Assembly: GCA_002841945.1 (NCBI GenBank)
Contig: PHBI01000002.1
Span: 11,972 to 75,971 of the forward strand
DNA length: 64,000 nucleotides
Direction of reading: 5' to 3'
From: Deltaproteobacteria bacterium HGW-Deltaproteobacteria-14
GTDB taxonomy: Bacteria; Myxococcota_A; UBA9042; PHBI01
Shown piece by piece: positions 6,961 to 38,622 of the stretch (its first letter is position 1; each line of letters begins with the position of its first letter). Under the pieces are notes generated by a model that worked only from the letters and a program-made list of their open reading frames with translations, was not told where the DNA came from and did not search any database. Made by a program: the position numbers and the translations under genes.

Positions 6961-6969
6961 TTGCTCTTC

Positions 6970-20731: not shown

Positions 20732-20742
20732 CGAGGACGTGA

Positions 20743-21882
20743 ATGGGACGCCGGAGAGGTCAGCCCCTGTGGCAGAGCTACGCCGACCTGGCGATGGGGC
20801 TCATGGCGGTGTTCGTTCTGATTCTGGTCATTCTCCTGTGGGACCAGAACAGGCTCACGACCGACTTAGCTCAATCGAAGGAGCGGGCCGAGCAGGCACT
20901 CGAGGATGCGATGAAGCAACGGCAGCTCACGGAAGAGGCGCTTGAGTCCGTGACTCTCGAGAGGGCCGCGCTCGAGTCCGAGCGAGGGACCTTCGCCATT
21001 GAGCTGATGGAGCTGTTCGAAACGACGTACGACCTCGTACTCGCTCAGGATAACGCAGAGAACTGGCTCACTGCGGTCTTCGAGGAGGGCGACTGCCGGT
21101 TACGTATGACTGAGCGAGGTGAGCTGGTCATCGCGACGCCGGACGGCGGACGGGCTGCGGCCAGTCTGTACGAGTCGGGGCAGTTCGTCCTCAGCGTTGA
21201 GGGTCGTCAGGCGCTGCTCACGTGTCGGGACAATTTCCTGAAGCTCGCGCACTGTCTCACCCCCGAGGACAACGTCCCCGAGGCGGTGAGTGAGAGGCGC
21301 AAGCGGCTGTGCCCCGGTGTTGGGGTCCACAGCCTCGACATGGCTGTCCCGGTCTTGCGGGCGGGGATCGAGGCGCTCGTCCTGGAAGGAAACACCGACC
21401 AGATCCCGCTCGGAGGCGGTACCCCGAGCATCCGGGCCGGCGGCTACGGGGTGACTTACCCCACACCCGTGGCGCTGAGCTTCGTCGAGAACGCCTACCT
21501 TGGTGCGGAGCGGGCTCGGCAGGCGCTCGGGAACCTCATCGCGTTGGTCGCAGACGCGAATGAGGACCAGTGGGACGCGCTCGAGGTGATGATGAGCCGC
21601 GTCCGGATCGAGAGTCCGAGTTTCGGCCGCTTCCAGGCCGGTCCCCAAGAATGGCGGGAAGCAGGATGCGAGGGACCCGGGAGTTGCGCGGCGGCGCGGA
21701 ACCTGGCGCTCCGCGTACGGTGGCAGAAGCGTGCCCTCCGCCGGCCGTTCGAGCTCGTCCGTGAGCGGATCTGCGGGTTGCTCGTGACGCCCGACTCCTC
21801 GTTCGCAAAGGGACTCCTGAGCCAAGGACACACCCTCTTAGCCGAGCGCGAGCGCTTCGGCTGCCCGGAGACCGTCCCGTGA
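20743..21882 (+). CDS. zorB: ZorB (MotB-like stator subunit with single TM and periplasmic domain)
   Basis: N-terminal YADLAMGLMAVFVLILVILL has a conserved Asp at the MotB-like TM start. Gene sits 11 nt after zorA. Size 379 aa. Confidence 0.7.
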   Translation: MGRRRGQPLWQSYADLAMGLMAVFVLILVILLWDQNRLTTDLAQSKERAEQALEDAMKQRQLTEEALESVTLERAALESERGTFAIELMELFETTYDLVLAQDNAENWLTAVFEEGDCRLRMTERGELVIATPDGGRAAASLYESGQFVLSVEGRQALLTCRDNFLKLAHCLTPEDNVPEAVSERRKRLCPGVGVHSLDMAVPVLRAGIEALVLEGNTDQIPLGGGTPSIRAGGYGVTYPTPVALSFVENAYLGAERARQALGNLIALVADANEDQWDALEVMMSRVRIESPSFGRFQAGPQEWREAGCEGPGSCAAARNLALRVRWQKRALRRPFELVRERICGLLVTPDSSFAKGLLSQGHTLLAERERFGCPETVP

Positions 21883-23120
21883 CATCGTTGCCACCCATCC
21901 CGACGCTCGCGACGTTCTCGCTACCTCGGCCCGTCGGACTGCGGCGCCTGAACCAGCGTGTTTTCCGGGGAGCCGGCGTGAAACCGCGGCCGTCGCAGCT
22001 CGAGCAGGCGCGCAAGCTGCTTGCCAGCGCGAAAGCAGGCGCACAGGTCGAGGTGACGTCGTCGGTGCTGTGCCGATGTCTCGTGTACATCCTCGGGGAA
22101 CGCCCAGACGACACGGAGCGTGACCTCATCGGGAGGCTCGTTCTCGGTTCACCACACGCGCGAGCCCGAGAACTGCTCGCGCTGTGGGAGAACGTGCCAT
22201 CGCGGCGCGCCGCGATCGCTGTGGCGCTCTCGTCGGCGCTCGACGCTCGCTCACGCCCTTTTGTGATGCCCGACTGGTTGCCCCGCACCGAACCCGAACG
22301 GCGCAGAGCCCTGGTAGCCCCGCATGCGTTCTGCCTTCGAGGGCTCGAGCGTAATCTTGGTTCCATCGACACCGTCGGGGACAGACTCGGCGTCGTCCTG
22401 CACAGCAGACTCGGCCATGAGCTCCTATTGCACGCGTTGGTGCACGGCTCTGACCGGTTCTGGGGGGCCCTTGGGTCCCCACTTGAGCTGCGAGAATGGG
22501 CTCGCCCCCGCGACACCCGAACCCAAGCGGCCATTGCGGACCGCCAACTCGTCGCCATTGGGCGCGGCGTAACCGCACCATACAACCTCCCGGATGACGC
22601 CGAGACCAAGCACCTGACCGAATGGGTCTTCTCGACGCTCCGATCGCCGGACACTCACGCTGCGCGCTGGGACGGCGTGTCCGATCGGGGGCGTGAGGTC
22701 TTCGACTGGCTGCTCATCCGAGATGAGATTGTCAAGATTCTCGCGCTCTTTGAGCAGCAGGCGACGCAGTCGGACCGGGGGGAGTTCTGGAAGAAGCAAG
22801 CGCACCGGATCCGCGACGCACGCTTCGTGGACCTTGATGAGATGGCGGTCTGTCTGATCGTGATTGGGGAGACCCTGGTCGTCGAGTTCGGAGACTACGC
22901 CAACGCGGGGTACGTGTACGGAGTGCCCGCGCATTCACCGTCGGTGAGGCGGCCAGCGAACCTTCCAAATAGGGCGGGGAGCTTCAAGCAGCGTGGATAT
23001 CACCTGAAAATCGGAGCGGTCGTGTACCCGTTCAAGGACCGGATCATCCACGCGGGGGACTGGCAGACGCGGACCGGACAGGCCATCGCACAGTGGGCGG
23101 CAGGGTGGAGCCGGCGGTAG
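21879..23120 (+). CDS. zorC: ZorC candidate (413 aa), by position between zorB and zorD
   Basis: Start overlaps the zorB stop (ATGA). No motif recognised by eye. Assignment is by synteny of type I Zorya (zorABCD). Confidence 0.45.
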   Translation: MTSLPPIPTLATFSLPRPVGLRRLNQRVFRGAGVKPRPSQLEQARKLLASAKAGAQVEVTSSVLCRCLVYILGERPDDTERDLIGRLVLGSPHARARELLALWENVPSRRAAIAVALSSALDARSRPFVMPDWLPRTEPERRRALVAPHAFCLRGLERNLGSIDTVGDRLGVVLHSRLGHELLLHALVHGSDRFWGALGSPLELREWARPRDTRTQAAIADRQLVAIGRGVTAPYNLPDDAETKHLTEWVFSTLRSPDTHAARWDGVSDRGREVFDWLLIRDEIVKILALFEQQATQSDRGEFWKKQAHRIRDARFVDLDEMAVCLIVIGETLVVEFGDYANAGYVYGVPAHSPSVRRPANLPNRAGSFKQRGYHLKIGAVVYPFKDRIIHAGDWQTRTGQAIAQWAAGWSRR

Positions 23121-23133
23121 TTGGCTGCTGAAG

Positions 23134-26100
23134 GTGGAGGATTGCGTGAGTTCCTACGACCAGCGTGGCGTACACCTTGAACTTTCAGGGGTGCCGCTCT
23201 CCACAGTGGCAACCGCGGCGCTGCGTGACGAGGGCTTCATTCCGTGGCGCGTCGCTCTCTCCGTGCTCGACGAAGCGTGCGACCTGAACGAGGTTTCGGC
23301 CCGGCTTTCGGCGCTCGACGGGACGTTCTCCGAGGAAGACCGCTCCGCGCTCGAGGCGCCTCTGGCCCAGCTCATGCCTCCCACAGTGCCCATGACCCTG
23401 TCGGTAGCCGTTCGTGGGGTGGCAGGACGGACTCGCTACGCGCTCTTAGGCGAGTGGGTAGGCCGGGATGGCTACCGAGTTGACCCGCCACCCGAGCGGC
23501 TGTCACCGGGGATCGTCCGGTGGCGGGAGTCCGACTGGCGCATTACCGCATCACAACTGGAGGTACTCGACTCGCTCGACGGCGTCGAGGGGCTGGGAGC
23601 AAATCGAAGCACCGACCTGGCGCACACCGAGCGGGTGACGTCGGCGGTGCTCGGCGGCGATGCCTCGGTAACACTCGGGCCAGGCTTGCGGTCTAGTCGG
23701 TTCGTTCGCGTCGACGCTGTGGCACCGATGTTTGCCCAGGCCGCACCAGGACGATATCGCATGATGCCAACGGTCGAGGGCATCACAAACGAGACGCTGT
23801 GGGGACAACTGCGGCGGAGCCGCGGGGCCGAGCAGGTGGTGTCGTACCGAGACCCAGATGGCGTCGCAACGAGAGTCGTCTTCACGAGTCGCGCGCAGGC
23901 CGCGATTGCAGATGTCCGCCGCGAAGCCGCACAGATGCTCACGCCACGTCGGGTCGCGCAGATCATGACGCGGCCACAAGACATCCTCGGAGAGAACCTC
24001 GACCTCTCCGGCTTGTCGGAGCGGGTGACGGGCTTCGGCCCGGTGGTGCTCGACGTGAGCTTCGAACCAGGCGAACTCGGCGGACGGGACTGGTGGGACT
24101 TCGACACAACTCTCGTGCTCGACGATGGAGTCGACACGTCGCTCGCCCTCGATCTGAGGGACGAGAACGTCGTACGCACCCTGGAGACCGCTATCGCTGC
24201 GGCGGACGCCGACGGCTCGGCCTTTATCCCGTGCCCCAACCGGGACGCGCTCATGCCGCTGACTGCGCTCCTACGCCAGGCAGTGGCCACGGCACGCGAA
24301 CGCCTGGATGGACTCAAGCCGGAACGGGCGGAGCCACAAGGTTTTCAGATCATCTACAACATCGAGGAGCTCGAGTTCGAGCAGTCGGAGGTAACGCCGG
24401 GCGGAACACCTCCGAGGAAGCCGCGGGGGCTGGCGCCAGGGTTCGAACTCCACGACCACCAGTTGGTCGGATTCTCATGGTTGCATGCGCTCGCGACGGC
24501 GCCAGGGGGCTCGCGGGGGGCGTTGCTCGCCGACGACATGGGGCTCGGGAAGACGCTTCAGGTCCTCGCGCTGCTCTCGGACATGCTCGAAGGGGGGCGT
24601 CCCGGCCCCCATCTGGTCGTTGGACCAGTCGCCGTTCTGACCAACTGGATGAGGGAGGCACGGCGGTTCTTCCAGGAACGACTGCCGTGCCTGCAAATCC
24701 AAGGTCAGTTCCTGCGCGGTGCGTCGCCGGCGATGTCCGCATCCGCACTGCAAACCCAGCGCGTCGTCGTCGCGAGCTACGAGACCCTACGCGTCAACGA
24801 GATCGCGTTCGCGAAGGTGAAGTGGGACACCGTCATCCTGGACGAAGCCCAGAAGGCGAAGAACCCAACGACCCAGATCGCTCGCGTCTTGAGGACGCTT
24901 CAAGCGCGCTTCCGGCTCGCCGTGACGGGTACCCCTGTCGAGAACAGCCTACGAGACCTGTGGACTCTGTACGACTGGGCTGTACCCGGTCTGCTTGGGC
25001 CACTCCGACAATTCCGTACCCGCTTCATGAAACCACTCGGCGACGGCGCGGATAGCGTGCAGCGCCGGGTACTCGCCGACGAGCTAACGAGCACGATCAA
25101 GCCGGTCTTCATGCGACGGCTCAAAGAAGACGCGCTCCAGGGGCTACCACCGATCCACCGGCACGACCACGTCGTCCCGCTCTCGCATGAGCAGGAACTC
25201 ATGTACGCCGCCGTCATCCGGTCGGTAGTTGACGGACGCGAGAAGCCCCTGGGGAGCCTCCCGCGGTTGTTCGGGATGTGCGCGCATCCAGACCTGACTC
25301 CGTGGTTCGACGACCTCCGTGCGCTTGCGGCGAGTTCTTTCCCAAAGGGTCAGAAGCTCTTCGAGCTCCTGGATGACGTCGCGGCGCGCGGCGAAAAGGC
25401 GCTTGTCTTCGCGAACCGGAAGGCCGTCCAACGTTGGATCGCGGACGAAGTCGCTCGCCGATACCAGGTTGCACGGCCTTTCGTTATCAATGGTTGCCTC
25501 GATGACTCGGCCGAGCGGTTGAGGCTCGTCGACTTGTTCCAGAGCCGCCCGGGCTTCGGGTGCATCGTCTTGGCTCCGCGTGCGGCCGGCGTTGGCCTCA
25601 ACATCACGGCGGCAAACCACGTCATCCACTACATGCGCGAGTGGAACCCCGCGGTCGAGAACCAGGCGACGGACCGCTGCTACCGCATTGGGCAGGTCCG
25701 CCCAGTCCATGTGCACACGATAACCGCACGTTCGCCGCGCGGCGTGACGGTCGAGGAGCGACTCGCGGAGCTACTCGAGGCCAAGCGCCGGCTGTTCGCC
25801 GACTTCATCGTGCCGCTTGGCGATGTTGAGGTCGCCCAAAGCGACCTGGTCAACACGGAGGGCTGGGACGAGACGACGGTGGACGGCGACGCAGATCTGT
25901 TCACCGACGCGATGTGGCCAGTTTTACGCTCGGTGCTCGAAGCCGACGCATCGATGCGCGCTGAGCCGCCCTGCGAACACCTCGATGGAGGCCGCGTGAT
26001 CGGGCTCGACGACGGGACCCTGTTCGCAGGCACGAAGGTGGTCCGGCTCGTCGATGGGACCCGCAGGGACGCGGACCGCCTCGAAGCGGCGCTCCGCAAG

Positions 26101-26181
26101 AAGGGGGAGTCAGTGGAGGTGGTGGATACGCGACATCCGACACTCGCGGCGCGGGCGCTGGGGCGTGCGCTGACGTGCTGA
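23134..26181 (+). CDS. zorD: ZorD (SNF2-like helicase, 1015 aa, helicase core in C-terminal half)
   Basis: LADDMGLGKTLQVLAL, VILDEAQKAKN, LAVTGTPVENSL and helicase-C motifs. ~430-aa N-terminal extension. Last gene of the zor operon. Confidence 0.7.
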   Translation: MEDCVSSYDQRGVHLELSGVPLSTVATAALRDEGFIPWRVALSVLDEACDLNEVSARLSALDGTFSEEDRSALEAPLAQLMPPTVPMTLSVAVRGVAGRTRYALLGEWVGRDGYRVDPPPERLSPGIVRWRESDWRITASQLEVLDSLDGVEGLGANRSTDLAHTERVTSAVLGGDASVTLGPGLRSSRFVRVDAVAPMFAQAAPGRYRMMPTVEGITNETLWGQLRRSRGAEQVVSYRDPDGVATRVVFTSRAQAAIADVRREAAQMLTPRRVAQIMTRPQDILGENLDLSGLSERVTGFGPVVLDVSFEPGELGGRDWWDFDTTLVLDDGVDTSLALDLRDENVVRTLETAIAAADADGSAFIPCPNRDALMPLTALLRQAVATARERLDGLKPERAEPQGFQIIYNIEELEFEQSEVTPGGTPPRKPRGLAPGFELHDHQLVGFSWLHALATAPGGSRGALLADDMGLGKTLQVLALLSDMLEGGRPGPHLVVGPVAVLTNWMREARRFFQERLPCLQIQGQFLRGASPAMSASALQTQRVVVASYETLRVNEIAFAKVKWDTVILDEAQKAKNPTTQIARVLRTLQARFRLAVTGTPVENSLRDLWTLYDWAVPGLLGPLRQFRTRFMKPLGDGADSVQRRVLADELTSTIKPVFMRRLKEDALQGLPPIHRHDHVVPLSHEQELMYAAVIRSVVDGREKPLGSLPRLFGMCAHPDLTPWFDDLRALAASSFPKGQKLFELLDDVAARGEKALVFANRKAVQRWIADEVARRYQVARPFVINGCLDDSAERLRLVDLFQSRPGFGCIVLAPRAAGVGLNITAANHVIHYMREWNPAVENQATDRCYRIGQVRPVHVHTITARSPRGVTVEERLAELLEAKRRLFADFIVPLGDVEVAQSDLVNTEGWDETTVDGDADLFTDAMWPVLRSVLEADASMRAEPPCEHLDGGRVIGLDDGTLFAGTKVVRLVDGTRRDADRLEAALRKKGESVEVVDTRHPTLAARALGRALTC

Positions 26182-26399: not shown

Positions 26400-28352
26400 T
26401 CACGTGTTGGGGTTCGCGGCCACGGTTCCGTCGACGCGGGGTGGGCGGGGCCAGAGAGCCAGCGCCTCCTCGAAGAGTCGGCGGCCACGGGTCCGAATCG
26501 CTGCCTCGTCCCAGGTCTCGGCGTCCTGGAACCAGGTGTTGATGCGAATGAGGCTTTGCTGGGCGATCTCGGGCCGCTTGGTGGCGTAGGGGCCGTTGCT
26601 CACCGACGAGTTGAGGGCCTGGGTAAGAAGTGTCAGGTTTCCGAACGTGTGGATGACGCGGTTTCGCTGCTCGATCGCCGACTCGTGCCCGTCGACGACC
26701 TCGACCTCAGCCGGCGCGGGCCACGCGGTCTCCCACCTGACCGGCATGACGTGCTCGACCGAGAGTGGGCCAATGTACTGGATGTTCTCCTGCTTCACGC
26801 CGTGGAGCTGTCGGTTCAGCGCTTGGAGGATGAGCGCGACGCGGCTGCTCTGCACTTCGTTGTAGATGGGTCGATCCAGCCAATGGCGCTCAAAGAGGGC
26901 GTCATCCGGCCAGACCATCGCGCTGGAGTGGCCTTCTGCGAGGTAGTCGCTCACGAGGCCGCGGTCGATCTTGTCCGCGGCGTGCAGGCGTCGGAGCAGG
27001 CCGACAAAGACCTTCACGTAGCTCTTGGTGGGGAGGTTGCACACGAAACGGCGTACGAGATACGACTCCAGGTCGCAGAAGATGCCGGGCAGCGCGTCGG
27101 GATCGACACGATCGCCGGCGCTGACCATGAGGAAGAGGAGAATCGGGTACACGCTGCTGATGTCGAGCCCCTTGAGGCGTCGTGCGAACGCGGCCCACGG
27201 GAAATCGTCCTTGGGCTCCACCAGGTTTGCGAACACGTCGCTGTGGGTGCGGATGAACAGGAGCGCATCCTCCGCGTCGCGCTCTTCGGTCCCCTCCCAC
27301 CAGTCTCGGAACGCTCGGTACAGTCGGCCGACGCTGATCTCGTCGTCCATCTGCGACTGGAGATAGTGGTAGATGAAGATGTCCAGCATGGGCTGCTTCG
27401 CACCACCCAGGCGGACACGGCGCTTCCAGAAACGTTCCTCGGCTTTGCTCCCAGGCGTGGTCACTGGGCGCTCGTCGTACTCGCGCCAGAAGGTGTTGTA
27501 GAGTTCCGTCTGGTCCTTGCCTTGGGCCGTCGCTCGCATGAACGCGAAGTTACGGATGAGGTCTGATGGGAGCAGCGGCTCTCCACGCGCGTTCAGCGAC
27601 TCGAAGATCACCTGCGGGTCATCATCGTTCTGGAGCTCGATCTGTACCAGCAGGACATGCCGCCGGAGCGCGTTGTAGAGGGCCTGGGCGCGAGCCGCCA
27701 TCATCGCGTCGATGCCGTCCTCGACGTCGGTAAAGAACCCGTCCATCACGTCGTGGAAGTAGAGATACGCCTCGACAAGCGCGGGCCGCGGATCGGGTTG
27801 CCGTGCGTACTTGCGTCGTTTGAGCGGGAACGCATCCATCGCGGCAGCTGGGGAGCCGGCCGTCATCAGCTTCTCGAAGACGGTGCGATCGGTGTTCGTC
27901 GGCCAGACCTTGAAGACCTCGTGGGCGCCTCCGACGACTCCCTCATTGCGGGTCAGCCGAGCGAGGTCGTTGACGATCGCCTTGAGCGGATCCTGGCCTT
28001 GGTCTTCCGGCCTGGGGGCGTTCGCCAGACAATCGCGGAAGGCCGCCAGCACGATCTGCAAGGTCGTGAGGCGCTGCTGGCCATCGATGACCTCGGCGGC
28101 GTCGATGTGTGAGCCGAACGTCGCGAGCTGCCGGGTGACGATGGCGCCGAGGAAGTGGTTCTGCACGACGCCGTTCTTCTTGCCGGAGCGGCCCTCGTGG
28201 TCGAGGACCGCTCGGGCCCGCTCCACGATGTCGTTCCAGAGCGGCTGCCACTGCTTGTCCTTGGACCACACGTAGGGTCGTTGGAACAACGGCACGCAGT
28301 ACTGGCGCTCCTTGCGGAAGATGTCGAAGATGGCCGTCTTGCTCGTCTCCAT
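26400..28352 (-). CDS. GmrSD/BrxU-like type IV (modification-dependent) restriction enzyme, DUF262 (ParB-like NTPase) + DUF1524 (His-Me finger)
   Basis: N-terminus FDIFRKERQYCVPLFQRPYVW (DUF262 signature). C-terminus ...SVEHVMPVRW... (DUF1524 HNH-like). 650 aa. Confidence 0.8.
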   Translation of the reverse strand: METSKTAIFDIFRKERQYCVPLFQRPYVWSKDKQWQPLWNDIVERARAVLDHEGRSGKKNGVVQNHFLGAIVTRQLATFGSHIDAAEVIDGQQRLTTLQIVLAAFRDCLANAPRPEDQGQDPLKAIVNDLARLTRNEGVVGGAHEVFKVWPTNTDRTVFEKLMTAGSPAAAMDAFPLKRRKYARQPDPRPALVEAYLYFHDVMDGFFTDVEDGIDAMMAARAQALYNALRRHVLLVQIELQNDDDPQVIFESLNARGEPLLPSDLIRNFAFMRATAQGKDQTELYNTFWREYDERPVTTPGSKAEERFWKRRVRLGGAKQPMLDIFIYHYLQSQMDDEISVGRLYRAFRDWWEGTEERDAEDALLFIRTHSDVFANLVEPKDDFPWAAFARRLKGLDISSVYPILLFLMVSAGDRVDPDALPGIFCDLESYLVRRFVCNLPTKSYVKVFVGLLRRLHAADKIDRGLVSDYLAEGHSSAMVWPDDALFERHWLDRPIYNEVQSSRVALILQALNRQLHGVKQENIQYIGPLSVEHVMPVRWETAWPAPAEVEVVDGHESAIEQRNRVIHTFGNLTLLTQALNSSVSNGPYATKRPEIAQQSLIRINTWFQDAETWDEAAIRTRGRRLFEEALALWPRPPRVDGTVAANPNT

Positions 28353-29204
28353 CGTGCCTCCGTGTGCAAGGCACGACAGCTACTATCGCCCGCCGCGACT
28401 GTCCAGCCGACGGGAGCGGTGCGCGTCGTGACGCAGGTGCTGTTGCGCACCGCGGCGACTTGCTGGGCTGCGTCTCTGGCGCCGCTGAGCCTGGGGAGCG
28501 TCAACTCTGGACACGTTCCCTTCGCAGGCGTCCGGTTCAGAGGACGCCTTCTTCAGGTGCCCGGCGACGTGGCAACTGCATGCCTCTTCATCGACTACTC
28601 CCGTGCAGTTGGCGCGGGCCCCGCTGACGATGGTGACCGACGCGCAGCTGCGCTGGCTCGCCAGCGGCTACCCGGTCGAGTTCGTCGGTGCCGGCACCCC
28701 CCACCATCGACCAACCCGGTCGTCACCGGCTTCGACTCGCCGCCCAAGACGGCCCCAGGGCACGCGTGACACGCTGGTTCGCGGTGCCAGTGTGCACGGT
28801 GGTTGCAGTCCACCGGCGTGCACCACGGCCGTCAGCGGCCTTCTCGGCGATGTACTCGCGGAGCGCAGCGACGATGTCCCCGTGACGGTGTCGGTCATCC
28901 GAGATGCGGGTCGAGCCTCCGCCCTACAGAGCGTAGGGCCTTCACTTCGCGACGCGGCTTGCGCGCCGGCGGCGCCACGACCGTCTCCAGCGTCTACGAC
29001 CCCGCGAGCCTCGAGCGCGTTCGGCGACCGCGCCACCCCGGACCCGGTCATGGACCACGAGCGCAGCGACCCAATCCGGGTACCAATTTTGTACCAATCC
29101 CCCACAAAACCACTCGAAAACCAGCCACAGGCCGCGACAAGCCAGGATGCCATATGTGAACGATTCCAGTAATCTACAACACACGGCAACACCTGACAAC
29201 AGGA

Positions 29205-29258
29205 GTCCTGTCCGACTTTTAATCCGATGGTCGGGGGTTCGAGTCCCCCGCGACCCAA
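29205..29258 (+). other. tRNA/tmRNA 3'-end-like fragment (T-arm GGGGG-TTCGAGT-CCCCC + acceptor 3' strand GCGACCCA) without a matching 5' half; putative att-site remnant
   Basis: ggtcgggggttcgagtcccccgcgaccca. No complementary 5' acceptor strand and no valid anticodon stem upstream. Confidence 0.5.
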
Positions 29259-29363
29259 CGACTTCTCCGCTCGCCCGGCGGTCCTCCCCCCCCGCCCGTC
29301 GGCGCCCCGCGCTCTCGCGTGCCTTAGCTTGTCCGGGGGCGCGGCCGCTGGTACCGTCGCGAA

Positions 29364-29567
29364 ATGACTTTGCACGTCGAGACCGAGCTCGAGGACGATG
29401 GGCGTTGGATCGGCGCCGTGCCCGAGCTGCCCGGCGTGCTCGTCTACGCCGACACCCGCGAGGGCGCGGTCAACGCGGCCGTGACGCTGGCGCTCCGCGT
29501 GCTGGCGGACCGGGCCGAGCACGGCGAGGCGGTGACGCTGCCGTTCACGTTGGCCTTGGTCGCTTGA
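29364..29567 (+). CDS. hicB: HicB-family antitoxin (67 aa)
   Basis: MTLHVETELEDDGRWIGAVPELPGVLVYADTREGAVNAAVTLALRV... is a typical HicB/UPF0150 N-terminal fold. Immediately followed by a HicA-like ORF. Confidence 0.65.
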   Translation: MTLHVETELEDDGRWIGAVPELPGVLVYADTREGAVNAAVTLALRVLADRAEHGEAVTLPFTLALVA

Positions 29568-29776
29568 GCGAGTGGCGAGCGACGAAGGCTCGCCGCGTGC
29601 TCGCCGCGTTGCGGCGCATCGGGTGGTCGGAGAAGCGGGCGACCGGCTCGCACCGGGTGCTCGAGCGTGAGGGCTGGCCCAACGTCGTCTTCGCCTTCCA
29701 CGACGGCGAGGAGATCGGCCCCAAGATGCTCGCTCGGCTGGCCCTCGCGACCGGGCTGACCCCGGACGACCTGTAG
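29564..29776 (+). CDS. hicA: HicA-family mRNA-interferase toxin (~70 aa, TTG start overlapping the hicB stop)
   Basis: ...RATKARRVLAALRRIGWSEKRATGSHRVLEREGWPNVVFAFHDGEEIGPKMLARLALATGLTPDDL has the GSH motif and the HicA dsRBD-like pattern. In frame within ORF 29147..29776. Confidence 0.6.
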   Translation: MSEWRATKARRVLAALRRIGWSEKRATGSHRVLEREGWPNVVFAFHDGEEIGPKMLARLALATGLTPDDL

Positions 29777-30074
29777 CGCGCTGGCTTCCGCACCCACGCA
29801 TCGCGGTCGCGCTCGAGCAGATCGGCGCTCGAGTTGATCCAGATTGTGGCTCACGACGACACCATCAGGCGCTTGGTCAGCTCGTCGAGAAGTCGGATGC
29901 CGAGGCTCCCGTTGACTCTCGCTGGGCGTCGCCCAGTGCGGCGAACGCCCGGAGATCTTGCTATCTTGGTCCTCTCTCACGGCACCGACAGCTTGCTGTA
30001 CGCGCCCGCCTGGTAAAGAATCCGTTCCTAGTCCCGCGGCTTAGGAACGGGGCCGTTACCACGCGGAGGACCCC

Positions 30075-31253
30075 GTGAGAGATCGCGAAGCGGGAAGCTA
30101 CGAGATAACGGCGGTGGCCGGTGAGGCGGTGCGGGCGTTCGTGCCCGCCCCGCTGCCCCCTGGGGCGCCGCCGCTCGACCTCGCCGGCACGCTGCTCGCG
30201 CGCGTCCGCACCGCCGAGGAGGCCATCGTCCGCCTCGAGCTCGCCGGCGCGATGGTGCCGTCGTTGGACTGGTTCATCTACGCCTTCGTGCGCAAGGAAG
30301 CCGTCCTGTCCACACAGATCGAGGGGACCCAGACAACCCTGATGGACCTGCTGACCTTCGAAGCCCCGGACACCAGCGACCAGCCCCCGCCCAACGCCGA
30401 CGTCGAGGAGGTCTGCAACTACCTCGAGGCGATGAGGTTCGCCCGCGAGCAGCTGGCCGACCCGCGCGGCCTGCCGCTCTCCATGCGTCTGCTCAACGCC
30501 ACCCACGCCCTGTTGATGCGCGGCGTCCGCGGCGCCCAGAAGCGCCCGGGCGAGGTACGGCAGAGCCAGAACTGGCTCGGCGGGAGCCGCCCGGGGAACG
30601 CGCTCTACGTCCCGCCGCCCCCTCACCTGCTGCCCGCCCTCCTCGGCGACTTCGAACAGTACATCCACGCCGACGATGGCCTCCCGCCGCTCGTCCGCGC
30701 CGGGCTCCTCCACGTCCAGTTCGAGAGCCTCCACCCGTACCTCGACGGCAACGGGCGCCTCGGCCGCCTGCTCGTCGCGCTGCTGCTCGAACACTGGGGC
30801 CTGCTCAGCCAGCCGCTGCTGTACCTCAGCCTGTTCTTCAAGCGTCACCGCCCGACCTATTACCAACGCCTCGACGCCGTGCGCGCCGAGGGCGACTGGG
30901 AGGGCTGGCTCGACTTCTTCCTCGACGGCGTCGCGACGGTCGCTGACGAAGCCGTCGCGAGCGCGCGCGACCTGTTCGCCCTGGTGGCGGACGACCGCCG
31001 CCGGGTCCTCGCGCACGACGGCACGACCGTCGTGGCGGCGCGCCTCTTCGAGCTCCTGCCGCGCCACCCGATCGTCACCAACGCCTGGGCCGTCGCGCAC
31101 CTGGCCACGACGAAGCCGACCGCCGCGCGCGCGATCGAGGCGCTGGTGGGCGCCGCCGTCCTGGTCGAGGTCACCGGCCGCAAGCGCGACCGCAGCTACG
31201 CCTACCGAGCCTACCTCGACCGCCTCCGCGTCGGCACCGAGCTCGACGCCTGA
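30075..31253 (+). CDS. Fic-family protein (class II-like, with N-terminal inhibitory S-x-x-x-E-G motif), 392 aa
   Basis: Fic motif HPYLDGNGRLGR. Upstream STQIEG matches the [S/T]xxxE[G/N] alpha-inh motif. GTG start. Confidence 0.8.
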   Translation: MRDREAGSYEITAVAGEAVRAFVPAPLPPGAPPLDLAGTLLARVRTAEEAIVRLELAGAMVPSLDWFIYAFVRKEAVLSTQIEGTQTTLMDLLTFEAPDTSDQPPPNADVEEVCNYLEAMRFAREQLADPRGLPLSMRLLNATHALLMRGVRGAQKRPGEVRQSQNWLGGSRPGNALYVPPPPHLLPALLGDFEQYIHADDGLPPLVRAGLLHVQFESLHPYLDGNGRLGRLLVALLLEHWGLLSQPLLYLSLFFKRHRPTYYQRLDAVRAEGDWEGWLDFFLDGVATVADEAVASARDLFALVADDRRRVLAHDGTTVVAARLFELLPRHPIVTNAWAVAHLATTKPTAARAIEALVGAAVLVEVTGRKRDRSYAYRAYLDRLRVGTELDA

Positions 31254-31296
31254 CCAGACAGGAGGCCACAGGGCCGCATCGAGGCCCGTCGCGGTG

Positions 31297-31404
31297 GTCT
31301 CCGTCGACACCCGCGAGGGCGCGGTCAGCGCCGCCTTGGCGCTGGCGCTCCACGTGCTGGCGGACCGGGCCGAGCACGGCGAGGCGGTGGCGCTGCCCTG
31401 CTGA
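31297..31404 (+). pseudogene. duplicated fragment of hicB (3' ~100 bp), direct repeat of 29442-29549
   Basis: DNA and translated (...VDTREGAVSAALALALHVLADRAEHGEAVALPC*) similarity to the hicB C-terminus (...YADTREGAVNAAVTLALRVLADRAEHGEAVTLPF), ~85 % nt identity by eye. Confidence 0.5.
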
Positions 31405-31454
31405 GGCGTTTCGGGTCCACCGACGGCAGGCCAGGACGGCCTTGCGCAGGTTCA

Positions 31455-33104
31455 TCACGCGTCGAGGTGGTGCACGGCGGCCGCGGCGAAGGCGTCGTGG
31501 GCGGTCGTCTTGTCGGCGAGGTGCTGCTCCAGCCGGTCGAGCAGGCCCGTCAGCTCATCGACCTTCGCGACGATGCGCTTCTGCTCCGCCATCGGAGGGA
31601 TGCCGACCTGCGCTCCGAGCAGTACCGGCTGGGTCAACTTTCGGCGATTCGTGGTGCCCGAAGTTGCATCAATGAACGGGTAGAACATCAGCATCATGTT
31701 GAGATACTGCGGCGCCACAGCAACGCTCGGTCGCAAGACGTGTGCATGGTTGTTGACCCATGTTCGGCCCTCGATGAGGTAGGAAAATGGCTTGGTTCGC
31801 CCGATGAACGTCTCGTCCTCCACGACCAACACAAGGGGCTCATCGAACAACGCCTCGTCTATCCACCCCACCTGACCGTTGGCCCCATAGTAGGGCACAT
31901 CGCCCGCTCTCTCCGCCCTCTTGGCCTTGCTGACGGGAACACGAAGATGGTCGTAGGAGTAGGCGATGTCGTAGACGCACGCATCGGCCCACTCGACGGG
32001 CGGTTGCCACTCCCGCCGAATCCGCACTCCTGGGTGCTTCGCGAGCCTGATCCGCTTCTGCTGCGCCATTTCCGTGCGCTCGGCCTTCGCCCGCTCCAGC
32101 AGCGCGCTGGCCGGCTCGTCGTTCGGGTCCTGCGGCACCAGCCGACCGCGCACGGCGAGCTGGAGCACGGTCTGCCGCAGCGGGTCCACGTCGGCGGGGG
32201 CGGTGAACAGGTCGTCCATCCGCTCCGCGATGCGGTCCCACGCGACCTCGACCTCATCCGGGGTCTCGGCGTCCCGAAGGGCGGCGAGCGCGGCGTCGCG
32301 CAGTGCCGTGCGGGTGGCCTCGCGGGCGTTCCGGGCGGCCTCCAGCCGGTCGAGCAGGCCCATCAGCTCATCGACGCGGGCGACGATGCGCTTCTGCTCG
32401 GCGAGGGGGGGCACGGGTACCGCGTAGGCCGCCAGGGATCTGCCAGTGAGGTGCTTGATTGTCGCACCCGTGAACAGGTCTGCGAGACGCCCTCCCGACG
32501 AGTCGCACCGCAGGAGGTAGGCCAAGTACCACGACGAGATGCCACAGTAGGGCCGGGCTCGGTGCAGCGCCTTCTGGTAAACCATGCCGGCGACCGACTC
32601 GTCGCAGACCGCAGCACGGCCTGGCTCGCCTCCTTCGCAGATGACCAGGTCGCCGACTGCGAGTGAGCACTCGTCAACCTCACTGTCCTCCAGACGAAGC
32701 TGTTTGAGGTCGTCGAGTACGAACTCGAACCACTGGAGATTGGCGTTCCGAAGGTATGGACGGAGCGGACCCGAGTTCTTTGCCTTGTCGAGCATCTTGC
32801 CCAAGCGAGCATCGGTGATGGTTCCGAATCGTGTCCAAGCCCACCCTTCCGGCACGTCGAACGGAGTCTCGTCCCTCGAAACCCCCGTCGTCGCCTTCGG
32901 GGTTCGGATCTCACCGGCCTTGTGGAGCCGCGCCTTCTCCGCCGCGATGCGCTTGAGCAGCACGCTTGCAGGTTCGTCCTCGGGGTCCTGCGGCACGAGC
33001 TTTCCGCGCACCGCGAGCTGGAGCACCAGTTCCCGCAGTCGCTTCACCCCGTCCGGGGCTTCAGCCAGCGTGTCGAACGCCGCGATCAAGTCCTGCGGCG
33101 TCAT
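31455..33104 (-). CDS. hsdS: Type I R-M specificity subunit HsdS (two TRDs)
   Basis: Two repeats of the conserved ...PPLAEQKRIVA..VDELMGLLD..LE motif. 549 aa. Start overlaps the hsdM stop. Confidence 0.85.
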   Translation of the reverse strand: MTPQDLIAAFDTLAEAPDGVKRLRELVLQLAVRGKLVPQDPEDEPASVLLKRIAAEKARLHKAGEIRTPKATTGVSRDETPFDVPEGWAWTRFGTITDARLGKMLDKAKNSGPLRPYLRNANLQWFEFVLDDLKQLRLEDSEVDECSLAVGDLVICEGGEPGRAAVCDESVAGMVYQKALHRARPYCGISSWYLAYLLRCDSSGGRLADLFTGATIKHLTGRSLAAYAVPVPPLAEQKRIVARVDELMGLLDRLEAARNAREATRTALRDAALAALRDAETPDEVEVAWDRIAERMDDLFTAPADVDPLRQTVLQLAVRGRLVPQDPNDEPASALLERAKAERTEMAQQKRIRLAKHPGVRIRREWQPPVEWADACVYDIAYSYDHLRVPVSKAKRAERAGDVPYYGANGQVGWIDEALFDEPLVLVVEDETFIGRTKPFSYLIEGRTWVNNHAHVLRPSVAVAPQYLNMMLMFYPFIDATSGTTNRRKLTQPVLLGAQVGIPPMAEQKRIVAKVDELTGLLDRLEQHLADKTTAHDAFAAAAVHHLDA

Positions 33105-34638
33105 CCCTGGCCTCCGCCCGCGAGGGCCGCGGCGAGCACCTGGCGCAGCTCCTCACGCAGCGCCGCCGCTGCCGCCCGCTCCTTGTCGAAGCGCGCCAGC
33201 AGGTCGTCGGGGTCCTCGTGATTCGTGCCCGGGGCGTTCGGGTTGGTGATGTCGAGGTTGAAGCCGCGCTCGCGGAGCTGGTCGAGGCTGACCTTCCAGG
33301 CGTTCTCGCTCTCCTGGCGGTCGTTCCACCACGCCTTCTCGGGCGCGAACTCCTCGATGCGCATGGGCTTGGTCTTCGAGTAGCTCTTGTAGCCCGGCGG
33401 GTACGGGTGCTCGTAGTACCAGACCTCGGTGGTCGGGCGGCCCTTCTCGAAGAACAGCACGTTGGTCTTGATGCTCGTGTAGGGCGCGAAGACGCCCTTG
33501 GGCAGCCGGACGATGGTGTGCAGGTCGCACTCGGCCAGCAGGCGCTCCTTGATGCGGGTCTTGACGCCCTCGCCAAACAGCGTCCCGTCCGGCAGCACGA
33601 CGGCGGCCCGGCCGCCGGGCTTGAGCAGCTCGATGATGAGGACGAGGAACAGGTCGGCCGTCTCCCGGGTGCGGAAGTCGGCCGGGAAGTTGTTCTCGAT
33701 GCCGTCCTCCTCCATCCCGCCAAACGGCGGGTTGGTGACCACCACGTCCACGCGGTCGCGCATGGAGATGTCGCGCAGCGGGCGCGACAGGGTGTTGTCG
33801 TGAACCACGCCGACCGGCACGTCGATGCCGTGGACGATCATGTTGGTGACGCACAAGAGGTGCGGCAGCGGCTTCTTCTCGACCCCGCGGACGCTGGCCT
33901 GGAGCTGGGCCTCCTGGTCGGGGGTCCGCACGTCGCGCTTGCGAATGTTCTCGATGGCGCAGGCGAGGAAGCCGCCGGTGCCGCAGGCGGGGTCGAGGAT
34001 GATCTCGCCGAGGCGCGGGTTCACCATGTCCACGGCGAACTGCGTGACCGCGCGCGGGGTGTAGTACTCGCCCGCGTTGCCCGCGCCCTGCAGATCCTTG
34101 AGGACCTTCTCGTAGAGGTCGCCGAAGAGGTGCCGGTTGGTGGCGTCGTTGAAGTCGATGTCGCCCTGCATCTTGTTGATGACCTGCCGCAGCAGGGTGC
34201 CGGACTTCATGTACTGGTAGGCGTCGGCGAACACGCCCTTGACGAGGAGACGGCGGCGGCGGAGAGCCTGCGCGGCCCGCGCCTCCGCGTCGTCGGCCTC
34301 GATCTTGGGGCCGACCTCCATGCCCTTGAGCGCGGAGAACAGGGTGTTGTTGGCGAAGTCGAGCAGCCTGTCCCCGGTGATTCCCTCGGGGTCGGAAGCC
34401 CAGGCGGACCAGCGCAGGTCCTTGGCCGTCTGGGTCTCGCCGCCCTCCTGCCAGGTGACGTTCACCAGGGGGGAGGCGAAGTCCGGCTCCATCAGCGCCA
34501 GCTCTTGCTCGCGGTCGTCCCAGATCTTGAGGAAGAGGAGCCAGACGAGCTGGCCGATGCGCTGGGCGTCGCCGTCGACGCCGACGTCCTTGCGCATGAT
34601 GTCCTGGATGGACTTGACGGTGGTGTTCAGGGACACGG
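33101..34638 (-). CDS. hsdM: Type I R-M N6-adenine DNA methyltransferase HsdM (start probably GTG at 34638 or ATG at 34594, not the ORF-track start at 34798)
   Basis: NPPFG motif IV, DPACGTGGFL motif I, and N-terminal HsdM_N-like QRIGQLVWLLFLKIWDD. The longest ORF would overlap the hsdR 3' end by 61 nt, so an internal start is preferred. Confidence 0.8.
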
Positions 34639-34736
34639 GGTAGGCCTCGGTCAGGGATGGCAGTGGATGGGCGGGGCGACGGGCGGGGCGATGTCGGGGC
34701 GGCGGCGCTCGCCAGCGCCCGAGACAAGGCGGCGCG

Positions 34737-37067
34737 TCAGCCCGTCGGGCGGTACAGCTCGGTCTCCAGCTCGCGCACGGCGGCGCGATAGGCGTCAAGG
34801 GTGCCGAAGCGGTTGACCAGCTGCACGGGCGTTCCCAGCGCGGAGATGGGCTGCACGCGGAGGATGGCGGGGTCCTCGACCGGCGCCAGGCCCTCGTCGG
34901 CGTACTTGTCGAGCAGGGCGTTCAGCACGGCGCGGGCGGGCTCGCCGTACTTCGTGAAGACGTCGCGCTTCTTGACGTTGTCGGCGCGCTCGCGGCGGGT
35001 GAGCGGCGGGCGGCCGTAGACGACGTGGCAGACCAGGTCGAAGGCGTCCAGGTCGCGGCCGACCTGCTCTCGCAGCTCCTCGAACAGGACGCCCTGCTCG
35101 GCCAGCTCGTCGATGACGGCGGCCTTCCGCTCGGCGGCGGTCCAGCGGCGGAGGAAGTCGTCGAGGCTGGCGAACTGCTGCAACACGGTCTGCTTGGTGT
35201 AGTCGACGAGGGACTCGGTGATGAGCTTGCCGTCCTTGCCGTAGTACTGCACGCGCTCGCCCAGGACCTGGACCCGGACCGGGGTGACGACGTAGCGGGT
35301 CGCGCCGTCGGTGGACGGGTCGCCGAGGGGGTCGCCGTCGCCGGGGGTGTCGTCAGGGGGCGTGGGCGGGTCGTAGGGGCCCGGCTCGTAGATGATGACC
35401 GGGTCGCCGTCGAAGCTCGGGTCGGCGAACAGCTCGGTCGCCTTCTTGAAGTCCATGATGGTGAACCAGAGCTTGTCGGCCGCTTCGTGGATGCGGGTGC
35501 CGCGGCCGATGATCTGCTTGAACTCGATCATCGACTCGATCCGCTGGTCGAGGACGATGAGCTTGCAGGTCTTGGCGTCGACGCCAGTTGTCAGGAGCTT
35601 CGAGGTCGTGGCGATGACCGGGTAGCGGTGCTCGGGGTGGATGAAGTTGTCGAGCTGCCCCTTGCCTTCGTCGTTGTCGCCGGTGATGCGGACGATGAAC
35701 CTCGCGGTGTTGGTGGCCTCGTCGGGGCGGCGGAGCGCTACCTCGTTGGCCAGGGCAGAGCGCATGCGCTCGGCGTGGTCGATGTCCTGGCAGAAGACGA
35801 TGGTCTTGCCGTAGGGGTCGGTGGCGCCGAGGTAAGCGACGACCTTCTCGGCGACGCGCTTGGTGCGTTGGTTGAGCACGAGCACGCGGTCCATGTCTTT
35901 TTGGTTGTAGACGCGGTCCTCGATCTCCTGACCGAGGTCGTCTTTCATCCCCTTGGGGGGGCGCCAGCCTTGGAGGTCGACGTCGAGGTCGATGCGGACG
36001 ACCTTGTAGGGGGCGAGGAAGCCATCGTCGATGCCCTGCTTGAGGCTGTACTCGTAGACCGGGTCGCCGAAGTAGCTGAGCGTCGAGACCTCCTTGGTCT
36101 CCTTGGGAGTCGCGGTGAGGCCGAGCTGGATGGCGGGCTCGAAGTAGTCGAGGATCTCGCGCCACGCGCTGTCCTCGCGGGCGCTGCCGCGGTGGCACTC
36201 GTCGATGACGATGAGGTCGAAGAAGTCGGGGCTGAACTGCTTGTAGACGTTCTTCTCCTCCTCGGTCCCGGTGACGGCCTGGTAGAGCGCGAGGTAGACC
36301 TCGTAGGCCGGATCCATGTCGCGGTTTCTGACCTTGGTCATCACCGACCCGAACGGCTTGAAGTCGTTGGTGATGGTCTGGTCGGCCAGGATGTTGCGGT
36401 CGACGAGGTAGAGCACCCGCTTGACGCGCTCGGCCTTCCAGAGGCGCCAGATGATCTGGAAGACGGTGAGGGTCTTGCCCGTGCCGGTGGCCATCACGAG
36501 GAGGATGCGGCGCTGGCCGGCGGCGATGGCCTCGACCGTGCGCTGGACGGCGATGCGCTGGTAGTAGCGCGGCTCCTTGCCGCCGGGGTCGTCGTAGTAC
36601 GGCTGGCGAGCGAGCTTCTCGGTCGCGTCGGTGAGGCCCTTCCACGCACGGTAGCGGGTCCAGAGGTCTTCGGGCGACGGGAACGCGTCGAGCGCGAGCG
36701 AGCGCTCGAGGGGCTGGGAGAGGCCGGTCCTGTCGTGGAACAGGAAACCATCGCCGTTGGACGCGAAGACGAAGGGGACGTCGAGGGTTTCGGCGTACCC
36801 GAGCGCCTGCGCCATGCCACCACCCACGGGGTGGTGGTTGTCCTTGGCCTCGACGACGGCGAGGGGGAGGTTCGCCTGGTAGAAGAGCAAGTAGTCGGCG
36901 CGCTTCTTCTTACCCCGATGGGCGAGCTTTCCACGGACGATGACCCGCCCGGCGGTGAAGGAGAACTCGCGGCGGATCTGCGTGTGCTTGTCCCAGCCGG
37001 CCTGGATGATCGCCGGCGTGATGAAGTTCTGGCAGATCTCGGTCTCGTTCTGGGACTTCTTGCTCAC
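34737..37067 (-). CDS. hsdR: Type I restriction enzyme R subunit HsdR (776 aa)
   Basis: N-terminal PD-(D/E)xK nuclease region (..DYLLFY...AVVEAKD..). SF2 motifs [11 protein letters not shown] and [10 protein letters not shown]. Confidence 0.85.
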
Positions 37068-37186
37068 GCAGGCGGCCTCCCAACGTCGTGCCGCGGTCGC
37101 GACCGCAGCGGCGCGAGCCTCTCACGCCGGTCGCCAAGGTTCAACGTCACCCGGCCCCCCCCCGCGCGACCGCACCCCAGGCCGAT

Positions 37187-37330
37187 CCGGAACGGCATCG
37201 ACCCGATCCCGAACGGCATCGAGCCGATCCCGAACGGTATCGGGCCGATCCCGAACGGCATCGGGCCGATCCCGAACGCTCTCGACCCGATCCCGAACGG
37301 CATCGGGCCGATCCCGAACGCGGGATCAGG
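37187..37330. repeat. 21-bp tandem repeat x ~7 (consensus ccgatcccgaacggcatcggg) between the hypothetical gene and the hsdR upstream region
   Basis: Direct reading gives seven head-to-tail 21-bp units with point variants, starting immediately after the stop of the 37326.. gene. Confidence 0.8.
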
Positions 37331-38090
37331 TCGTTGGGGCTGGTGCGTCGGCGGGCGGAGCCTGGCGGGCTCGGCGCTTCTGGTTCAGCCGCTGGTTGCG
37401 CTCGTAGGCGCTCGCGAAGCGGCGGGCGTCGGCGGTGTTGCGGAAGGCGTAGCGGCCGGCGTCGCGGATGTCGGTCATGGCGTCGTCGAGCGCCGTCCAG
37501 GCGCGGTCGCGCAGCGCCAGGGCGCTCGCCATCGCCTCGTCCGTCCGGTACTCCGCCAGCCCGGCGCGGATGGCGTCGGACAGCTGGCGCAGCTGGGTCA
37601 CCGCCCCCTCGGCGTCGAAGGTCTGGTCCGACGCGAAGCCGGCGAGCTGCTGCTGCACCAGCTCGCCGAGGTCGACCAGGTCCTGCACCAGGTCCGCCAC
37701 GCCCACGCCCTCGACGATGCGGTCGAGCGCCCCCATCACCAGCCGCGCGTCGCGCAGGTTCCAGCGGATGGCCGCGACCACGCTCGCCCGCAGGGCCAGG
37801 CCCTCGTCCTCGAGCGCCCGCTGCTCCTCGGGCTTGCGCGGCGAACGCACCGCCGCCCAGCGCGCCTGCGCCTCCCGCGCCGCCTCGAGACGCTGGCGCG
37901 CCTCACCGAGACGCTCCGCCGGCAGACCGACCGCCGTCAGCTTCGCCGACACCTCGGCCGGCTCGAGCCAGACCAGCGCGTCCAACGCCTCCTGAAAGTA
38001 GATGTGGGCCGGGATGTCCGGCCGCCGCACCTCGGCCGCAGGGATCGCCTCGAGCTCAGCACGCAACGCCTCAAGAACAGTCGCAGACAC
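37326..38090 (-). CDS. alpha-helical hypothetical protein (~254 aa; start GTG at 38090 preceded by GGAGG)
   Basis: The long ORF (to 38576) runs through the 51-bp tandem repeats. The internal GTG with an SD-like GGAGGT 4 nt upstream is the preferred start. No motif recognised. Confidence 0.35.
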   Translation of the reverse strand: MSATVLEALRAELEAIPAAEVRRPDIPAHIYFQEALDALVWLEPAEVSAKLTAVGLPAERLGEARQRLEAAREAQARWAAVRSPRKPEEQRALEDEGLALRASVVAAIRWNLRDARLVMGALDRIVEGVGVADLVQDLVDLGELVQQQLAGFASDQTFDAEGAVTQLRQLSDAIRAGLAEYRTDEAMASALALRDRAWTALDDAMTDIRDAGRYAFRNTADARRFASAYERNQRLNQKRRARQAPPADAPAPTT

Positions 38091-38469
38091 AGGAACCTCC
38101 GGGTGGACAAGGGTTGAGCCTCGACCCTGCAAGACCCCCGCGACACGCGCAACCGCCCCGGCCGACAGCGATTGATCGTCGGGGCCCGGATGGCGCGCTG
38201 CAAAAAGACATCCGCGGCGAGCCGATTCGCGCTCGTCCCCCGTCGCAAGCTGCCGGCCTTCGGCGGGGCGTTTTCGAAGCGCGCAAAGTGCCTTTGCGCC
38301 GCGCAATCGCGCTGGCGACCGGCCGGTGGGCGAGGCCCACGGCCCGCCGTCACGTCCGCGAAGATCGACCGCCGGGTCGCCCAACAGCTCGCCGCGCTGC
38401 CGCTCATTCGCTCGGCACTCGCCGAAGGGCACCTCGGGCTGGTCAATTGCCGAGCTGCTCGCCCGCGAG

Positions 38470-38581
38470 GCCACCGGAGCGCCCGGCGCGGATGGCGGGC
38501 GGGACGCCCACCGTCCGAACGCCACCGGAGCGCCCGGCGGGGGTGGCGGGCGGGACGCCCACCGTCCGAACGCCACCGCGG
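38470..38581. repeat. 51-bp tandem repeat x2.2 (gccaccggagcgcccggcg..gatggcgggcgggacgcccaccgtccgaac)
   Basis: Direct reading. Lies in the non-coding stretch between the giant helicase gene stop (38623) and the hypothetical gene start. Confidence 0.75.
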
Positions 38582-38622
38582 ATCAGCGCCCCCCGAGCGG
38601 CCAGAGACAGCGCGCTGACCGG

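Follow-up and report, generated by a model that had tools for sequence, protein, structure and literature searches.

Integrases of the P2/HP1 type, among them HP1 Int and the Int of Ralstonia phage RSA1, insert into tRNA genes. In the mycobacteriophages L5 and Tweety, a common core of approximately 40-45 bp covers the 3′ part of the tRNA and arm-type sites lie on both arms; likewise, in an attP of the lambda type, repeated arm-type sites flank the core on both sides. P4-like satellites and related integrase-primase islands are said to carry anti-phage hotspots, a finding reportedly made by Rousset and colleagues in 2022. The general scheme has been set out in the Islander work, which defines tDNA-integrated genomic islands (Hudson, Lau & Williams 2015, PMC4383910; Williams 2002, NAR 30:866). 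The island brings with it the 3′ part of its target, and integration restores the gene while leaving the displaced fragment as a marker of the distal end; such a 3′ tDNA fragment is present in 3760 of 3919 islands, and the site is anticodon-centred in 2083 (PMC4383910).

The stretch of DNA analysed here (64,000 nucleotides, referred to as the window and numbered from its first nucleotide) contains a fragment of this kind. We conclude with high confidence that positions 29214-29265 are attR, the distal junction of a tyrosine-integrase island whose insertion point is the 3′ part of the tRNA-Lys(UUU) gene that follows lepA-lepB. The conclusion is drawn from the 52-nt identity between this segment and a second site, the intact tRNA and the integrase found at that site, an arm motif shared by the two, the empty site of a relative, and the topology of the contigs. 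The initial annotation had proposed an att remnant at an island junction, and the partner site, the integrase and the empty site have now all been found. As in the Islander islands, a regenerated tRNA stands beside a tyrosine integrase, a displaced 3′ fragment, probably in direct orientation, lies at the other end, the identity runs from the anticodon stem-loop past the 3′ end, and the cargo is foreign and of lower G+C. Of the features on which Islander calls an island, a fragment that matches part of an intact tDNA exactly, a PF00589 integrase beside that tDNA and an empty site are present, and the direct orientation of fragment and tDNA with the island between them has good indirect support. 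The locus differs from those islands in its source, an uncultured subsurface Myxococcota MAG, and in that attL and attR lie on separate metagenomic contigs whose connecting middle was not recovered, so that the length and continuity of the island are deduced rather than read. The locus is an ordinary instance, in an uncharacterised organism, of a very well known mechanism; no new mechanism is involved, and its use lies in annotation and in the study of how defence systems move.

The segment was initially delimited as 29205-29258 (...caggagtcctgtccGACTTTTAATCCGATGGTCGGGGGTTCGAGTCCCCCGCGACCCAac) and described as a T-arm followed by an acceptor end. The T-arm is indeed present (GGGGG, 29233-29237; TTCGAGT, 29238-29244; CCCCC, 29245-29249) and is followed by the 3′ strand of the acceptor stem, GCGACCC (29250-29256), and the discriminator A (29257); there is no encoded CCA. 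The description as a tRNA-derived 3′ part thus stands, but its limits shift: the tRNA part starts at 29214, not 29205, and the repeat reaches 29265. In addition to the T-arm, the fragment has the whole anticodon loop (CTTTTAA, with UUU as the anticodon) and the 3′ strand of its stem. By alignment and in ARAGORN numbering, 29214-29257 (forward strand) corresponds to nucleotides 30-73 of tRNA-Lys(UUU), the last 44 nt of the gene, and runs from the last 2 bp of the anticodon-stem 5′ strand through the loop, variable loop, T-arm and acceptor 3′ strand to the discriminator A; the ARAGORN prediction for the intact gene of the partner contig has the anticodon, ttt, at position 34. With 8 nt of 3′ flank, this tRNA part makes up the attR core, the 52-nt direct repeat GACTTTTAATCCGATGGTCGGGGGTTCGAGTCCCCCGCGACCCAACGACTTC (29214-29265, forward strand).

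All 44 positions of 29214-29257 are identical to genuine tRNA-Lys(UUU) genes. This identity and the lysine anticodon loop argue for a tRNA-Lys and against a tmRNA, so that of the “tRNA/tmRNA” end first proposed only the tRNA remains. To the left of 29214, alignment finds no resemblance to the 5′ half of a tRNA, and divergence is complete at 29213; the lack of a matching 5′ acceptor strand had been correctly noted. Since the 5′ half is absent, no tRNA can be made from the fragment, which by its sequence is the 3′ part of tRNA-Lys(UUU) and evidently neither a tmRNA nor a functional tRNA. ARAGORN reports no tRNA or tmRNA in the whole 64 kb, and the Rfam tRNA model, at a relaxed threshold, gives a partial match at 29201-29249 (model positions 10-63; 21.1 bits vs a cut-off of 29). 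The 29-nt string of T-arm and acceptor end has one copy in the window and none in 100 shuffles, even with 3 mismatches allowed.

The partner site is found on a second contig, L019 (JGI 3300038334 Ga0246094_003814), which was reached via the LepB homologue P0003 and comes from the same sample as the JGI contig that carries the window. Its gene order is lepA, lepB, tRNA-Lys(UUU), integrase, a 293-aa ORF, two small ORFs and a split primase-helicase. The tRNA-Lys(UUU) gene is intact (L019 4966-5038), and the longest exact match between this contig and the window is 52 nt long (L019 4995-5046 = window 29214-29265, 52/52); to the right of the block, alignment shows the two to be unrelated. The searches that the initial annotation had suggested, for an intact cognate tRNA with a direct repeat and for an integrase beyond the window, were thus both successful, the repeat being identical over 52 nt in the same MAG and the integrase lying beside the tRNA-Lys. 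The fragment is one half of an attL/attR pair and not the “orphan” it had been called. The integrase (373 aa, L019 5153-6274) starts 115 nt past the tRNA and matches PF00589 (2.8e-32) and phrog_1 integrase (2.4e-66); the Xer and integron NCBIfam models score far under their cut-offs on it. Its reading frame is intact and contains RLGELKRL, HDLRHT and LGH...LRYAH, which, read by eye, would be the catalytic Arg, His-x-x-Arg and Tyr motifs of a tyrosine recombinase. Its best phage and PDB matches are integrases of the P2/HP1 type, with approximately 33% identity to RSA1-like integrases over 77% of the protein. Among solved structures, the nearest are 5c6k and 5dor, named only ‘Integrase’ and presumably those of phage P2 integrase, together with the HP1 integrase 1aih. 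Unlike the P2/HP1-type phages, the island has no phage structural genes nearby, shares only this approximately 33% identity, and targets tRNA-Lys(UUU).

On the island side, the fragment lies at the end of a stretch of approximately 1 kb (28353-29363) that had been described as gene-free, and this description holds: the ENA and JGI annotations contain no gene there and the GC3 signal is not coding-like. Most of the stretch, from the start codon of GmrSD to the arm (28353-29078), is non-coding island DNA with no gene call, no GC3 periodicity and no tRNA-like remnant. A search of the gap for an integrase pseudogene found neither coding signal nor tblastn match, and local alignments made for a decayed fragment in 28353-29078 and at the right-block edges score the same as shuffled and real-sequence background. 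The 9-mer GCGACCCAA at 29066 was considered as a remnant and is at chance level. Between this stretch and the core, composition and alignment mark out the arm of attR on the island side, which corresponds to the P arm in the reconstructed attP (29079-29213, forward strand) and is AT-rich (51% G+C vs approximately 70% in the remaining gap). The island-side TCCGA is an imperfect mimic of the 5′ strand of the anticodon stem.

The arm begins with candidate arm-type integrase sites, the tandem GTACCAAT..GTACCAAT in GGTACCAATTTTGTACCA (29079-29096, forward strand), 118 nt upstream of the core. The motif, GGTACCAATNNTGTACCA, consists of two tandem GTACCA(A/T)T units. The window has a single copy, at 29079, and none of 100 shuffles has one at up to 2 mismatches; L019 likewise has one copy (5066-5083), which lies 20 nt past the core on its downstream side and in the same orientation as in the window, and the unrelated loci have none. 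We take the pair of motifs to be putative integrase-binding sites. The resemblance to L5 and Tweety extends to both a long common core that is the 3′ part of a tRNA and short repeated arm motifs on both sides; here, in contrast, the host belongs to an unrelated phylum, the island is not a phage, and the arm sites are proposed from sequence. Other candidates in the arms were less convincing. The 10-mer GGCAACACCT (29185-29194, forward strand) is common to the integrase-side arm (L019 5103-5112), in which ACGTGGCAAC also occurs twice; it has one exact copy in the window, with near-matches at chance level. As arm sites, GTGGCAAC and GGCAACACCT have near-chance counts across the window and so lend only weak support. 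In viral contigs, the arm motif gave 27 matches, every one in DNA of 30-53% G+C that lacks a tRNA-Lys core, and we attribute these to chance.

The state of the locus before insertion is seen in a relative, L052 (ENA ERZ24842365, contig “Myxococcota_PHBI01_NODE_1917”, 86 kb), reached via a LepB cluster member and 95% identical to the integrase contig over 4.9 kb of lepA-lepB. Its tRNA-Lys is intact (11271-11343) and is followed directly on the 3′ side by homologues of the right block of the window, in the same orientation to the tRNA as the right block has to the fragment. The alignment is 92% identical from the core outwards (L052 11300-11365, window 29214-29279), extends beyond the core into what we take to be native sequence downstream of the tRNA on the chromosomal side of attR (29266-29363, forward strand), and resumes at 11391-11516 (window 29973-30098, 91%), 11511-11596 (30296-30381, 91%) and 19455-20624 (37202-38372, 89%). 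There is no integrase among the called genes of this contig, nor any match to window 1-29213. It therefore represents an empty site, and the left block of the window has been inserted where the tRNA gene formerly adjoined its older neighbours. The short contigs L012 and L013, from other samples, both have the occupied junction; neither an excised circle (attP) nor an empty attB from this population was seen among the contigs recovered. A 13/16 match to the arm motif in the relative (GGGACGAATTCTTTACCA, L052 11429-11446, minus strand, 86 nt after the tRNA-Lys) is probably due to chance; the equivalent place in the window (approximately 30011-30028) is more diverged.

Pattern scans of the genome and metagenome collections returned one locus each, L007 and L008, so that support at the level of the population is slender. 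Both have an intact tRNA-Lys(UUU) downstream of lepB, with the last 44 nt identical to window 29214-29257; the attR core is present entire in the first and is identical at 47/47 positions in the second. We considered them as the partner site and rejected them, as they are more distant relatives with no synteny with the window. The order lepA-lepB-tRNA-Lys is kept in the more distant relatives, and the LepB homologues P0014, P0007 and P0004, which belong to other organisms, show this synteny and nothing further. In L007, a degenerate second T-arm and acceptor end of tRNA-Lys (GGTCGGGGGTTCGAGTCCCCGGCCCAACGG, 5071-5108, minus strand) lies approximately 130 nt downstream of the intact gene. It is a scar left when an integration or deletion took place there earlier, and the site has thus seen repeated use in the lineage.

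To the right of the fragment, the window contains an older variable neighbourhood of the tRNA-Lys (29364-44950), outside the island and collinear with L052. It starts with hicB (29364-29567) and hicA (29597-29776), continues with Fic (30075-31253), a type I restriction-modification system (hsdS/M/R, 31455-37067) and genes for 79-aa and 254-aa proteins, and then reaches ProA (38623-44709), a 2028-aa ORF matched end to end by the NCBIfam model ‘anti-phage protein ProA’ (2113 bits). A C-terminal HNH remnant (DRSNLVGLCVTCHLELLHQ..., 44781-44925), which shares 68% protein identity with an HNH frame that is close to the tRNA-Lys in L007, lies exactly at the step in G+C to core DNA. The G+C content is 66.7% in the left block, 67.0% in the island part of the integrase contig, 69.4% between the fragment and 44.95 kb, and 73.4% in the core beyond; past 45 kb, the window holds ordinary metabolic and regulatory genes, including those for a sigma factor and a kinase.

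Three parts of this neighbourhood distinguish the window from L052. The hicB/hicA cassette (window 29280-29972) is missing from L052, its flanks being conserved at approximately 91-92%, and the difference is a clean cassette-sized indel adjoining the att site. The type I system has the order S-M-R in the window (31455-37067) and M, YhcG-like gene, S, R in L052 (12381-19376); identity is 68-70% in short alignable stretches vs approximately 90% in the flanks, and the system looks like a cassette swapped at a fixed position. Homology between the two ends at 38372, just before ProA; at the equivalent place L052 has a 244-aa ORF running off the locus, and ProA appears to be absent there.

The initial annotation had gone further and proposed that the island was built by successive integrations at this site. 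In such a scheme, the right block (hicBA to ProA) would be an earlier island that entered through the same tRNA-Lys site, and its G+C (69.4% vs 73.4% for the core), its wholly defence and toxin-antitoxin cargo, its cassette-like differences from L052 (hicBA absent, another type I system, ProA not seen) and the HNH remnant at the G+C step, at approximately 44.9 kb, are what one would expect of one. However, the window has no second tRNA-like fragment, even a decayed one, by exact and near-exact pattern search, local alignment, blastn-short or the Rfam tRNA scan (E ≤ 10), and no integrase homologue. Moreover, the right block already stands beside an intact tRNA in L052 and therefore predates the documented insertion. 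One integration only is documented, that of the left block. We regard an origin of the right block as an earlier island, and with it serial assembly at this site, as possible but unlikely.

Our reading of 29214-29265 as attR of the island on its left requires that the two contigs come from one genome, an assignment based on binning, co-occurrence and graph topology. The window is carried by ENA ERZ27239242 k141_67844 (80 kb), JGI 3300038334 Ga0246094_000393 (102 kb) and NCBI GCA_017973775.1 JAEMOH010000263.1 (62 kb), and parts of it also by shorter contigs from three other runs; every sample or assembly with the window contig also has the integrase contig. At NCBI, the proteins of both contigs have the locus-tag prefix CVU56 (GmrSD, CVU56_00620; primase, CVU56_24525), and the records of the integrase, LepB and LepA carry the full name HGW-Deltaproteobacteria-14. 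The Logan contig on the GmrSD side (L006) stops at window 29243, having covered exactly 30 nt of the 52-nt block, and the one on the integrase side (L021) begins exactly 30 nt before the end of the block. If, as we assume, the Logan assembly used k=31, these ends are as expected for a repeat that stands in two contexts in that run.

The other ends of the two contigs also meet in a repeat. A sequence of 137-141 nt is common to the right end of L020 and the left end of the window contig, 100% identical and inverted; this inverted repeat of at least 137-141 nt lies at approximately -12,032 to -11,892 relative to the window (L054/L055 17338-end) and at L020 11228-11364 / L019 10978-11100. Both contigs enter the one repeat node, and for this reason the Logan, JGI and MEGAHIT k141 assemblies break at both places. 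The sole path that joins the contigs (L020, repeat, middle, inverted repeat, window contig) is one in which tRNA and fragment lie in direct orientation. We propose one continuous element of at least 47.3 kb that spans the two contigs (6.1 kb of L020, 41.2 kb of the window contig, and the middle). The repeat, GTAAGCGGCCGGTAGACACC...GAGCAGCACGTAC, contains a ribosome-binding site and ATG for MVAEHIGGARAARLEQ..., and its copies flank the unassembled middle segment of the island. Candidate explanations are an invertible segment, a gene duplicated in inverted orientation, or an element whose terminal repeats are very long. In the viral contigs, there is no match to the 38 nt at the end of the integrase contig.

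The gap between the contigs is also where a tandem or composite arrangement would have to be accommodated, in which the integrase-primase module is a separate, smaller element and the fragment in the window is attR of an older, integrase-less island with the same type of att site. The gap is unbridged and could hide the distal fragment of the module itself, the visible island has no integrase in 41 kb, the degenerate fragment in L007 indicates reuse of the site in the lineage, and arrays are known at tDNAs (125 of 3919 Islander islands, PMC4383910). On the other hand, the entry of both contig ends into the same inverted repeat amounts to a simple direct connection, the arm motif at the window fragment matches that in the arm beside this very integrase, and the two 52-nt copies are still identical, which speaks against an old, decayed island. 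We therefore judge a tandem array to be distinctly unlikely.

Formation of the fragment with no site-specific recombination, as the decayed pseudogene of a second tRNA-Lys copy left by an unrelated deletion or insertion, is very improbable. Truncation at the 5′ end could in principle yield such a fragment, and the window has no tRNA, but the identity to the intact gene is perfect and continues 8 nt beyond the tRNA end, it starts 2 nt before the anticodon loop, as is standard for class A, the arm on the integrase side has the same motif, and L052 has its single intact tRNA-Lys at exactly this right-block junction. Chance resemblance, or a piece of a larger structured or regulatory RNA (the case that the initial annotation had named against itself), is scarcely credible, for although the T-arm hairpin on its own might be read in this way, the string is absent from all 100 shuffles, the identity to tRNA-Lys genes is 44/44, no Rfam family matches the window at gathering score, and the folding of 29150-29300 is no more stable than that of shuffled sequence (z = -0.12).

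With attR as the preferred reading, the following course of events may be suggested. The attP of a circular element would have carried a copy of tRNA-Lys nucleotides 30-73 together with a few flanking bases. Its recombination with the chromosomal gene would have restored a complete tRNA-Lys gene beside the integrase (attL, on the other contig) and left the 5′-truncated copy at the far end of the island (attR), beside the original neighbours hicBA and Fic. The fragment has no RNA product, and its sole role would be to serve as the recombination partner of attL upon excision of the island. The start of the repeat identity at tRNA nucleotide 30, 2 nt before the anticodon loop, fits a class A site, and strand exchange probably takes place in the anticodon loop. 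As the repeats are perfect and the integrase is intact, we suggest that the island may still be able to excise.

The right-hand 28 kb of the island cargo fill the window from 1 to 28352, as judged from homology and from their absence from L052, and the island extends approximately 12 kb further to the left. A DISARM-like cluster occupies window 344-10221 as well as the 12 kb that precede the window (L002/L054); its members include a DrmD-like SNF2 protein (6970-10221; PADLOC 1e-184), a 1621-aa MmeI-type methylase and a 2011-aa DEAD/Helicase_C/MZB protein. Its 1788-aa and 417-aa proteins (both in the window) and its 349-aa protein have no Pfam match on record, and the first two have no PADLOC match either. 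A UvrD/GajB-like helicase (11005-13089), a Mokosh-like helicase (13492-17103), the Zorya I genes zorA-D (18035-26181) and a GmrSD type IV restriction endonuclease (26400-28352) follow. In the Zorya I-like operon, the ZorA-like (898 aa) and ZorD-like (1015 aa; PADLOC 5e-149) proteins match well, the match of ZorB (379 aa) is weak, and the 413-aa protein at the position of ZorC has no match. Neither the window nor the 12 kb to its left, 41 kb of visible island in all, has an integrase homologue.

The right-hand boundary of a mobile defence island is now fixed to the base, and recent cargo (DISARM-like, Zorya I, GmrSD) can be separated from an older neighbourhood (hicBA, Fic, type I restriction-modification, ProA). 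The integrase and its target, the tRNA-Lys(UUU) downstream of lepB, are identified, and the locus is a hotspot in a little-known subsurface Myxococcota lineage. In its layout the island recalls the P4-like satellites, with an integrase by a tRNA, a small candidate excisionase ORF, a primase-helicase of the D5/P4-alpha type and defence cargo. It differs from them in size (at least 47 kb, approximately four times P4, vs approximately 10-15 kb) and in its primase-helicase of P4/D5 type (PF19263/PF08706; PHROG DNA primase families), which is split into ORFs of 335 aa and 452 aa. P4-like satellites also have P4-specific capsid-size, Psu, delta and cos functions, and no capsid-redirecting or cos function is among those seen here; with this and its size, membership of the island is doubtful. 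We consider it unlikely that the locus is a still-mobile, giant satellite-like ‘defence carrier’ of at least 47 kb that excises and replicates, and not a fixed island. Such a carrier would unite the P2/HP1-like integrase, the P4-type primase-helicase and four or more defence systems, namely a DISARM-like system with two large unknown proteins, Zorya I, GmrSD and helicase systems; it would have an internal segment bounded by long inverted repeats, and its host would be an uncultured member of the Myxococcota.

Lastly, a 72-aa ORF (...GFDMVVRRVGRRVLVDERAFFAWVD...) lies at L019 7271-7489, after the integrase and the 293-aa ORF. It has no Pfam or PHROG match; by its size and position only, it is a candidate for an excisionase or AlpA-like directionality factor.
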